Source: Alphaproteobacteria bacterium
GTDB lineage: Bacteria; Pseudomonadota; Alphaproteobacteria; GCA-016699305
NCBI GenBank assembly: GCA_016699305.1
Contig: CP064970.1
Coordinates: 157,419-221,418 of the forward strand
Direction of reading: 5' to 3'
Length of the DNA stretch: 64,000 nt
Shown here in pieces: positions 25,972 to 28,272 of the stretch. The position numbers and the translations under genes are program-made. Within the stretch, counting starts at the first letter, position 1, and the number at the start of each line of letters is the position of its first letter. The notes below the pieces were generated by a model. That model was not told the DNA's origin, did no database searches, and saw only the letters and a list, made by a program, of their open reading frames with translations.

Positions 25972-27399
25972 TCAACGCTGCCTAATCCTCAAACGCAGAT
26001 TCCGGCTTGGGCGCAGCACCACGGCGGCCAGGGGACGAACGGGACGCTTGTTGATTGGAGCAAATTCAAAGCGGCGCGCCAGCATGGCCAATAGCAGAAC
26101 CGACTCCAACTCGGCCAGCCTTGCGCCGATGCATATGCGTGGCCCGCCGCCGAATGGGAAATAGGCGCTTTTCGCGGCAAGGGCCTGTGCTCCCATGAAG
26201 CGGGATGGGTCAAAGCGTTCGGGATGCGGCCATAGGCCGGGATGCTGGTGCAGGGCATGGATGCATCCCATCACGGTTGTCCCTTGGGGAACTCTGACTC
26301 GTCCATGGCCGGGGAACGGTACCAAGTCGTCTTGCGTTGCTTGGCGCGAGATTGTCCATACGGGGGGATAAAGCCGCATGGATTCTTGCAAGACCGCATA
26401 GGTATAGGGCAGATCCGATAATAGGGTTTCGGCACGAGCTAGGTCATTGGATGACAAGAAATCTTCGGCCTCTTGCGCCATGGCATCCGCCACTTTCGGA
26501 TGCTGGGCCATCAGCATCAGCGTCCAGGATAGGGCCTGGATGGTCGTGTCAAAGCTGGCGACCATGAAGAATAAGACTTGGTCGCGCAGGAAACGCGCAT
26601 TCCGATCTCCGTTGTCGCAAGCGGCGATCAGCCGCGCTAACAAGTCGTTTCCTGCCGTTGTTTGGCGGCGGCGCGCGTCGATGATCTCTTGCGCCTTGCG
26701 GCGCAGCAGTGCCAAGGCACCCTTGCATGGCGGCAGTGCCAACGCCCATTCTTGCGGCAGGGTCATGGGCGACCACATGCGAAACTCCGTCTCGCGCAGC
26801 AAGATCATGCTGGCTCGCGCAAGGGCAGGGGAGTCTTGGCACTGATGGCCGAATAATCCTTGAAGCGCGATACTCATGACGGCGGCGGCAAGGTCGGGCG
26901 CTATCGCCACGGGCTTGCCGGTATCGGTCTCTCCCGCCCAGCGTCTCACCAGATAGTCACCCGCCGATTGAATGGCGGGGATCAGGGCTTGGAGTTGCGC
27001 TTGGGCGAATGCCGGTGCCGCGCCGCGACGTTGCGACCGCCAAGATTCGCCCTCGGCGATCAACAGGCTGTCGCCGATCACGGGGCGGAAAGGCTCATAG
27101 AACGGGCTTTTTCGGTAAACTTGCGCGGCGTCTTGCAGCACATGCCGCATGGCGATGGGATGGTTCAGCACCAACATGCGTTGGCCGCGCGCCTCCAGCC
27201 ATACCACCTCGGTTGATCGAGTCAGGCGCTGGAAGAATTTCAAACGATCAAGCGTCAGATTCAGCATCAAGCCCCAGCCGCGCCGATTGGCGGGAATAGA
27301 GGCGGGGGGATTTAAGATGGGGCCTGTCTGGTTCTCGTTCTCGGCTTCGGTATCGGTTTGTGTCCAGCTTTGCTGTCTATGCGCAACGGGGCACGGCAT
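25972..27399 (-). CDS. Cytochrome P450
   Basis: Heme loop FGGGPRICIGARLAE, I-helix ASFDTT, ExxR block ESMRLYPP. The start is either 27399 (overlapping the luxI-like stop by 23 nt) or the internal ATG at 27267. Confidence 0.9.
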   Translation of the reverse strand: MPCPVAHRQQSWTQTDTEAENENQTGPILNPPASIPANRRGWGLMLNLTLDRLKFFQRLTRSTEVVWLEARGQRMLVLNHPIAMRHVLQDAAQVYRKSPFYEPFRPVIGDSLLIAEGESWRSQRRGAAPAFAQAQLQALIPAIQSAGDYLVRRWAGETDTGKPVAIAPDLAAAVMSIALQGLFGHQCQDSPALARASMILLRETEFRMWSPMTLPQEWALALPPCKGALALLRRKAQEIIDARRRQTTAGNDLLARLIAACDNGDRNARFLRDQVLFFMVASFDTTIQALSWTLMLMAQHPKVADAMAQEAEDFLSSNDLARAETLLSDLPYTYAVLQESMRLYPPVWTISRQATQDDLVPFPGHGRVRVPQGTTVMGCIHALHQHPGLWPHPERFDPSRFMGAQALAAKSAYFPFGGGPRICIGARLAELESVLLLAMLARRFEFAPINKRPVRPLAAVVLRPSRNLRLRIRQR

Positions 27400-28057
27400 C
27401 CGATGATCCTTTCTTTCTCAATGCCCAGGCTTGTGCGGGCAAATCATCGGGATGCAGCACAGGATGCGCAAAGCCCAGATGGCGGCGTAGGTCTTTGCTT
27501 TGCTCGGGCGGCATGAGGAAACGCGCGGCCACGCATTCATAGTTTCCCACTTTTTGCGCGGGACCCACCCAATCGGGCTGATAACCAAGACGGCTTGCCA
27601 GTCGCAGCATGGATACCTCGCATGCGGTCCATATCTCGCGCAGTTGCATCAAGGCCGAGAAATCGCATAAGGCGGCGATCATCTCACGCAGCGCCGCGCT
27701 GGATTCGGCCAGACTGACCCGGCCTTCCCCGTGCCGCTCGACGACAAAGCGGCTGGCTTCCCAGGCGGCGGGATCGCGGGGCATGGGCTGATGGGCGGGC
27801 AACAAATGCCCAAACACGTCGCCCAGCATCGTCGTGCCGGTACTGGGCAACAGCCGCCAGCAGCCGCGCACTTCTTTGCGCTGATTCAAGGACAGAAGGT
27901 AAAGAGTGTCGGGCAGGTCATATTGATCGACCTCTAACCCCCGTTGCACCGATACATCCCATTTCAGTTGTTCGCGCAGCACGCGCGCGCGCAATCGGTG
28001 CATTTGAAATAAAAGGTCGGATTTGCCGCTTTGCCCTGTCATCACAATTTCGATCAT
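27377..28057 (-). CDS. Acyl-homoserine-lactone synthase (LuxI family)
   Basis: The stretch FQMHRLRARVLREQLKWDVSV..GLEVDQYD...YLL....EVRGCWRLLPSTGTTMLGDVF..LL...WEASRFVV aligns block-for-block with TraI/LuxI. The ATG at 28057 (MIEIV...) has an AAGGGA SD. Confidence 0.9.
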   Translation of the reverse strand: MIEIVMTGQSGKSDLLFQMHRLRARVLREQLKWDVSVQRGLEVDQYDLPDTLYLLSLNQRKEVRGCWRLLPSTGTTMLGDVFGHLLPAHQPMPRDPAAWEASRFVVERHGEGRVSLAESSAALREMIAALCDFSALMQLREIWTACEVSMLRLASRLGYQPDWVGPAQKVGNYECVAARFLMPPEQSKDLRRHLGFAHPVLHPDDLPAQAWALRKKGSSDAVPRCA

Positions 28058-28272
28058 CGGGATTATCCCTTGGCTGAAAAGAATGAGGATGCATGTATTT
28101 TCATAAATCCAAAGGCGGGGCATGATCCATGAAAACAGGGGAATAACTAGTTACCATCGTATTTGTATTTGTGATGCGAAGGCATGCGGTTATGAGTACG
28201 ATTGTATGCTTATTTCCATTCGCAAACCAACTGTGCCAGATGCTCGATCCACCGACATAAAGAGGTATTTCA

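Follow-up and report, generated by a model that had tools for sequence, protein, structure and literature searches.

The diversity of acyl-homoserine lactone (AHL) signals is thought to stem from the choice that the synthase makes of an acyl-acyl carrier protein (acyl-ACP) or an acyl-CoA. Cytochrome P450 enzymes are known in this field from CYP102A1 (P450 BM3), whose hydroxylation of AHL acyl chains close to the omega end quenches the signal; the P450 and reductase of BM3 are fused into one self-sufficient protein, and the Gram-positive bacterium that has it does not make AHLs. To our knowledge, there is no characterised LuxI/LuxR circuit with translational coupling between a P450 gene and the synthase gene, and the crotonase of Mesorhizobium is the only documented extra enzyme in AHL making. 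The subject here is a luxI-family AHL synthase gene and the P450 gene that follows it in 64,000 nucleotides (nt) of contig CP064970.1 (assembly GCA_016699305.1, positions 157,419 to 221,418) from an alphaproteobacterium. This whole 64-kb stretch is referred to as the window, and coordinates are those of the window unless a relative is named. Comparison with relatives argues strongly for the pairing, and thus for an AHL circuit with a putative dedicated P450, which in the window is without its receptor.

In its logic, the R1-I1-crotonase circuit of Mesorhizobium japonicum (Suo et al. 2023) comes closest to a precedent for a three-component circuit of this kind; in it a luxI-linked enzyme is needed for 2E,4E-C12:2-HSL, and the three-gene unit recurs in other Alphaproteobacteria (PMC10470506). 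There, as would be the case here, a third enzyme linked to luxI serves an unusual AHL, but that enzyme belongs to the crotonase superfamily and is found with an acyl-CoA synthase, while the window has a P450, an apparent acyl-ACP synthase, and no receptor. Small proteins co-transcribed downstream of an AHL synthase, CinS of Rhizobium leguminosarum and MmaP of Methylobacterium fujisawaense, bind PraR (PMC10790750). Relatives of the window locus have a small open reading frame (ORF) after luxI, which is likened to CinS and MmaP by its position and its size (57–91 amino acids, aa) alone; the window has no such ORF. With LasI/LasR of Pseudomonas aeruginosa, TraI/TraR of Agrobacterium, and TofI of Burkholderia glumae, the locus shares the LuxI fold and its catalytic residues. 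In canonical LuxI/LuxR circuits, and likewise in the cassettes of the relatives, luxI is linked to a cognate luxR and preceded by a palindromic box, but the window has neither an adjacent luxR nor an intact lux box.

A full-text literature search found no paper on a luxI-linked P450 cassette, which agrees with the initial annotation of this DNA, where no characterised synthase-P450 cassette was known; the cassette itself, as described below, is recurrent in metagenomes. The reading preferred here, to which a probability of about 0.55 is given, is that the window carries a receptor-less derivative of a conserved alphaproteobacterial cassette, in which LuxI would make an AHL and the P450 would oxidise its acyl chain.

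The coupled luxI and P450 genes

The luxI-family gene is at 27377–28057 on the minus strand and encodes an AHL synthase of 226 aa (PF00765, E = 3e-30). The longest ORF is 27377–28123(-), and the ATG at 28057 within it is the start that is conserved; a ribosome-binding site (AAGGGA, 28066–28071) is present 8 nt 5' of this ATG, and the N-terminus MIEIV is common to all relatives in the clade alignment. The P450 gene follows on the same strand at 25972–27399 and encodes a complete, soluble P450 of 475 aa (PF00067, E = 8e-69). At the junction of the two (27377–27412, minus strand), the ribosome-binding site of the P450 gene (AAAGGA, 27407–27412), which is 7 nt 5' of the ATG at 27399–27397, and the ATG itself are both within the 3' end of luxI, the stop codon of which is 27377–27379. 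The P450 start therefore overlaps luxI by 23 nt. That this overlap is real follows from the ribosome-binding site that precedes the ATG at 27399 and from the P450s of relatives, which match from residue 2 on (the closest relative being locus L015). On the minus strand of luxI-P450, no terminator-like site was found, nor was a promoter-like site found between the two ATGs. The genes luxI and P450 are a translationally coupled two-gene operon. The positions, strands, and families given to both ORFs in the initial annotation are correct by the ORF list, the translations, and Pfam, and the 23 nt overlap that it had noted for the longest P450 start is the one described here.

Against PF00765 the LuxI protein scores 105.5 bits, where the gathering score is 24. 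Its best NCBIfam matches are the TraI-type AHL synthase models, at 105–112 bits against equivalog cut-offs of 250–292, and it is therefore a member of the family rather than a TraI orthologue. The clade alignment shows no variation at R23, W33, D44, D47, R68, E100, S102, R103, and T144, and the catalytic and S-adenosylmethionine-site residues line up with the same motifs of LasI (PDB 1RO5). The nearest solved structures are LasI and TofI, which are aligned over almost their full length, whereas the LuxI family profile covers only the N-terminal half of the CoA-type synthases BjaI and RpaI. Because of this difference in coverage, the window LuxI looks like the acyl-ACP-type synthases in its acyl-binding half.

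The P450 scores 233 bits against PF00067 and carries the heme-thiolate loop FxxGxRxCxG (FPFGGGPRICIG, with Cys423), the EXXR motif (E339/R342), PERF, and the acid-alcohol pair of the I-helix (D284-T285). This pair is within ASFDTT in the window and within AGHETT in the clade, the Gly-His of the clade being Ser-Phe here. The protein consists of a P450 domain only, and no fused diflavin reductase of the CYP102A1 type was found in its 475 aa. The solved structures nearest to the P450 family profile are the unnamed P450 7WZL, followed by CYP97A3 and CYP170A1, and the profile also matches structures of CYP46A1, CYP3A4, CYP102A1, and CYP4B1, the match being a strong one for the fatty-acid hydroxylases CYP102A1 and CYP4B1; the nearest structures are all oxygenases of lipophilic chains and terpenoids. 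The window P450 would thus appear to belong to the broad group that holds CYP102, CYP4, CYP97, and CYP170.

That CYP102A1 is in the same broad sequence group raises the alternative that the P450 is a built-in signal-clearing, or quorum-quenching, enzyme, which would oxidise the cell's own AHL and set the half-life of the signal, as does CYP102A1 of Priestia megaterium. CYP102A1 does oxidise AHLs, and its heme domains have an E of about 1e-68 with the family profile. However, CYP102A1 is not the nearest solved relative, the window P450 has no reductase domain fused to it, and it is encoded within the synthase operon, where to make and destroy a signal from one coupled operon would be wasteful. 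The co-divergence of LuxR and P450 in the relatives, described below, also fits a role in defining the ligand better than one in clearing it, and signal clearing is considered quite improbable.

The luxR-luxI-P450 cassette and its descent

The window LuxI is without a close relative, the best matches being 37–42% identical. All three of the best LuxI relatives that were looked up have luxR (249 aa), luxI, and P450 on one strand, with a small ORF of 67–85 aa between luxI and P450 that is absent in L004, and these three cassettes occupy three unrelated flanking contexts. From the P450 side, four out of four of the best matches looked up (36–38% identity, including the top two, with 5.8 billion proteins searched) are in a luxR-luxI-small ORF-P450 unit, with flanking contexts that differ again among the four. 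A metagenome scan with the P450 alignment returned 80 loci, of which five are luxI-linked, three of these being among the four best matches. The arrangement luxR-luxI-(small ORF)-P450 is also present in an uncultured Rhodospirillaceae metagenome-assembled genome (MAG) and in another alphaproteobacterial MAG, both from a scan of reference genomes.

The initial annotation had made its proposal depend upon conservation of the luxI-P450 adjacency in relatives, and this adjacency is kept in the cassettes of at least 11 distinct relatives. The window has the same order, luxI and then P450 on the same strand. Wherever the cassette of a relative comes with enough upstream sequence (11/11 distinct relatives), luxR immediately precedes luxI on the same strand; of the cassettes that can be judged in this way, only the window copy has no luxR. 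It is also without the small ORF, which in the relatives is directly after luxI and has no Pfam match in the three that were tested (L005, L015, and L018). As L004 and L010 are likewise without it, the small ORF is a variable feature of the cassette.

A maximum-likelihood tree was made of 87 P450 sequences, comprising 12 that are luxI-linked, the window P450, and 74 others that have no luxI upstream or too little upstream sequence to judge, with support by the Shimodaira–Hasegawa-like approximate likelihood ratio test (SH-aLRT). The 12 luxI-linked P450s and the window P450 are one clade (SH-aLRT 98), and all 74 others are outside of it. Within the clade, the window P450 is sister to L015/L011/L001/L004/L005 (support 97), and the window LuxI has the same position in the LuxI tree (support 97/96). 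In addition, the pairwise identity matrices of LuxI, P450, and LuxR co-vary. The congruence of the P450 and LuxI trees indicates that the two genes were inherited as a unit, and, as judged from the trees, the luxI and P450 genes of the window descend together from an ancestral luxR-luxI-(small ORF)-P450 cassette. Their adjacency is evidently neither chance nor recent recruitment. The interpretation in the initial annotation, that of a solo synthase with a dedicated P450, can be kept for the dedicated pair, given the adjacency and the co-divergence in the relatives; the solo state is a derived one, specific to this lineage.

Further candidates for the history of the locus were considered and rejected. 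Synteny with L019, where the order is rhomboid gene, cassette, and MsbA-like ABC gene, is not upheld, since the window matches it only at the level of families (34–37% identity). Carriage on a plasmid is not indicated, the best plasmid P450 matches (Qingshengfaniella and Microvirga) not being luxI-linked. The 660-aa match P0029, considered as a P450-LuxI fusion, is a tandem of a partial and a full P450.

In L017, the cassette continues on the same strand (5984–10426 of that locus) with genes for a major facilitator superfamily transporter, for an acyl-activating enzyme of the AMP-binding type, and for a subunit of a Rieske ring-hydroxylating oxygenase. The extended unit resembles a larger biosynthetic cluster, and its extra genes would fit precursor tailoring in the L017 lineage.

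Receptor loss and the luxI promoter

The window locus has lost both luxR and the small ORF, and of the LuxR-binding palindrome only a half-site is left. A LuxR profile was built from seven cassette LuxRs and used to search every six-frame ORF of 50 aa or more in the window (694 in total); no LuxR was found in the 64 kb, the best match having E = 2.1, and the same profile picked up distant LuxRs in control loci at E ≤ 3e-35. There is no match to the cassette LuxRs of the relatives by tblastn of the 64-kb window, and no autoinducer-binding or GerE domain was found by Pfam in 30 larger ORFs of the window. For the small ORF there is no room between luxI and P450, nor is there a tblastn match to it in the window. 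The claim of the initial annotation that the 64-kb window contains no LuxR-type regulator is therefore borne out by profile, tblastn, and Pfam scan. Its description of luxI as "solo" is correct for the window, but the state is derived: wherever the upstream sequence of a relative suffices, a cognate luxR is found directly 5' of luxI.

The ORF of 245 aa at 24861–25598 was considered as a divergent LuxR and rejected; it has no match in Pfam, in NCBIfam, or to the LuxR profile, its GC content is 36%, and it is absent in a related strain. An Rfam search of 24700–28400 found no structured RNA.

In L001, L004, and L005, a full palindrome, TATTCCCC-N4-GGGGAATA, is present 50–53 nt 5' of the luxI ATG (L001 5958–5977, L005 5928–5947, L004 about 5931–5950) and is a candidate operator of the cassette family; L015 and L017 carry related C4-N-G4 palindromes. 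No intact palindrome of the lux-box type was found upstream of the window luxI. When compared with L001, L004, and L005, the window retains the left half of the palindrome, TATTCCCC, at 28138–28145 on the minus strand, with the right half missing. The motif ATAC-N4-GTA, which abuts the lux box in the relatives, is present in two copies on the minus strand (AATACGATGGTA, 28152–28163, and CATACAATCGTA, 28197–28208), and these were also recovered as inverted repeat I2. By local alignment, the 215 nt upstream region of the window scores 28 against the intergenic region of L001 and 28 against that of L005, a score that was reached by 0/500 dinucleotide shuffles in each case. Similarity beyond that of 500 shuffles indicates that the luxI promoter of the window is a recognisable relic of the ancestral, LuxR-controlled promoter between luxR and luxI, with its operator broken, and a broken operator fits the loss of the local receptor. 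In the initial annotation, no lux-box-like palindrome was reported in these 215 nt; there is indeed no intact box, but the half-site at 28138–28145 had been missed.

An intact lux box was also sought elsewhere in the window, where the sole match has three mismatches, is inside htpG, and is consistent with chance. In the relatives, another small palindrome, ATAC-N4-GTAT, comes right before the lux-box palindrome. In the window, a 12 nt inverted repeat (TTTTCATGGATC ... GATTTATGAAAA) that is 83% complementary with a spacer of 14 nt follows closely after the half lux box, at 28098–28135; it could be the site for a different regulator or could be due to chance.

On the preferred reading, LuxI would join S-adenosylmethionine to an acyl-ACP to give an acyl-homoserine lactone, and the P450, with housekeeping ferredoxin and reductase, would put oxygen into the acyl chain of the AHL or of its precursor, at a chain position out of the reach of fatty-acid synthesis. 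Oxidation may come before or after LuxI, and what the pair really makes would be the oxidised AHL. Either an oxidised AHL or an acyl substrate prepared by the P450, as put forward in the initial annotation, may be the outcome. As the locus has neither a nearby LuxR nor an intact lux box, its expression would probably not be autoinduced from there, and the product might be sensed by a LuxR encoded elsewhere or simply be released. It is tempting, if rather speculative, to go further and to see in LuxI and the P450 a self-sufficient two-enzyme module for a distally oxidised (hydroxy-, epoxy-, or oxo-) AHL of an undescribed signal class, kept as a broadcast-only system in a receptor-less lineage of activated sludge, which would influence neighbours that have a matching LuxR, or interfere with them, without itself listening; this extended form is thought unlikely.

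A P450 that is co-inherited with LuxI and LuxR over a deep divergence would add oxygenation before or after the synthase as a second route to private signals, and the cassette family would predict undescribed oxidised AHLs that are overlooked by standard biosensors and mass-spectrometry libraries. The window can be seen as a natural deletion experiment: receptor, small ORF, and operator have been lost, and luxI and P450 are still overlapping and conserved. That luxI-P450 persists without a receptor suggests that the indivisible unit is the synthase-P450 pair and not the receptor. The habitat of the organism is the biofilms of wastewater and activated sludge, where AHL signalling affects floc and biofilm behaviour. 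The window copy is diverged and possibly relaxing, and thus not the member of the family best suited to experiments.

Constraint, expression, and the flanks of the locus

The window was compared with contigs of a strain of about 97% identity from run X2, which are single low-depth metagenomic contigs. Between the two, luxI has 2 synonymous and 0 non-synonymous codon changes, the P450 gene has 20 synonymous and 17 non-synonymous (omega about 0.28), and the flanking rhomboid gene has 9 synonymous and 2 non-synonymous (omega about 0.07). From these codon changes, as far as single contigs of low depth can be read, luxI and P450 are thus both under purifying selection, with the P450 less constrained. 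Both frames are intact, and their GC of 0.59–0.61 matches the surrounding genome. The locus is present in wastewater, activated-sludge, and biofilm metagenomes, and two biofilm metatranscriptomes contain pieces of 191–256 nt from within the P450, luxI, and rhomboid genes that match the window at 100% identity; these hint at expression of the locus.

Several observations weigh against the preferred reading. The matching metatranscriptome pieces may be DNA carry-over, and no RNA contig spans the luxI-P450 junction in the two RNA runs that have the locus. There is no ferredoxin or reductase near luxI-P450, nor was a ferredoxin-like protein found in the window by motif scan. The end branches of the window in the trees are long, at 1.53 (P450) and 1.33 (LuxI) against medians of about 0.55, and the window copy is the most divergent member of the cassette that was found. 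The omega of the P450 is about four times that of the flanking rhomboid gene, and the last 34 or so P450 codons (25972–26074) appear to be replaced in the X2 strain, where the minus strand before 26075 reads ...LARQVLSFPPSLN and that of the window ...LARRFEFAPINKRPV, the two being unrelated. Either the X2 strain may have an altered P450 C-terminus or its contig may be chimeric; the C-terminus of the window P450 is the ancestral one, because it is aligned with the relatives to the last residue. Such a replacement would fit a P450 on which constraint relaxed once luxR had been lost. Finally, L008 (992–1693) and L009 (7001–7738), the LuxIs of which are nested in the P450-linked clade, have luxR-luxI without a P450. 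This looks like secondary loss, and it means that the P450 is dispensable in some lineages.

Some of this would also be expected if the pair were a decaying remnant, functionless since luxR was lost and drifting towards pseudogenes. The missing luxR and small ORF, the half-site left of the lux box, the long branches of both proteins, the excess of the P450 omega over that of the flanking gene, and the replaced P450 3' end in the related strain are all in keeping with decay. Both frames, however, are intact with complete catalytic motifs, luxI has no non-synonymous changes, the P450 omega is well below 1, there are matching metatranscriptome pieces, and the GC matches that of the surrounding genome, which together make decay an unlikely account of the pair.

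The absence of a P450 from L008 and L009, which keep luxR-luxI, counts in favour of another alternative, in which the P450 is an output gene of quorum sensing within the luxI operon, switched on at high cell density, and oxidises an unrelated lipid, terpenoid, or xenobiotic. Outputs that are co-transcribed with luxI have been documented, in MmaP and CinS (PMC10790750), and the solved P450s nearest to the family profile include terpene and carotenoid oxygenases. An output gene would not so readily account for a P450 that has co-diverged with LuxI and LuxR down to about 30–35% identity across many flanking contexts, nor for one that is still coupled to luxI in the window although the regulator is gone. 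Such an output role is possible but is held to be doubtful, and the P450 is preferred as an enzyme that would act on the AHL or its precursor. In L008, there is an ORF of 97 aa after luxI.

Downstream, the boundary of the operon is an AT-rich pocket of 1.2 kb (24790–25971, 36% GC), outside of the cassette, between a convergent yejF-like ABC ATPase gene and the P450 gene. It contains the ORF at 24861–25598 on the minus strand, which encodes an orphan membrane protein of 245 aa. In the X2 contig, 24782 is followed by 96 other letters and then by 26075, so that the pocket is absent there, and the pocket is covered by 0/4 runs. It is therefore specific to the strain. Elsewhere in the window, a region of lower GC at 33078–36945 contains four minus-strand ORFs of 215–283 aa that have no Pfam match.

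Upstream, the boundary of the operon is the divergent gene for a rhomboid-family protease (28273–29904, plus strand; PF01694, E = 1e-27), which is situated where the relatives have luxR. Within this gene, at 28836–28839, the window and the X2 strain differ by compensating 1 nt indels, a base being out at 28836 and a G in after 28839, so that one or two codons there are read in a shifted frame.

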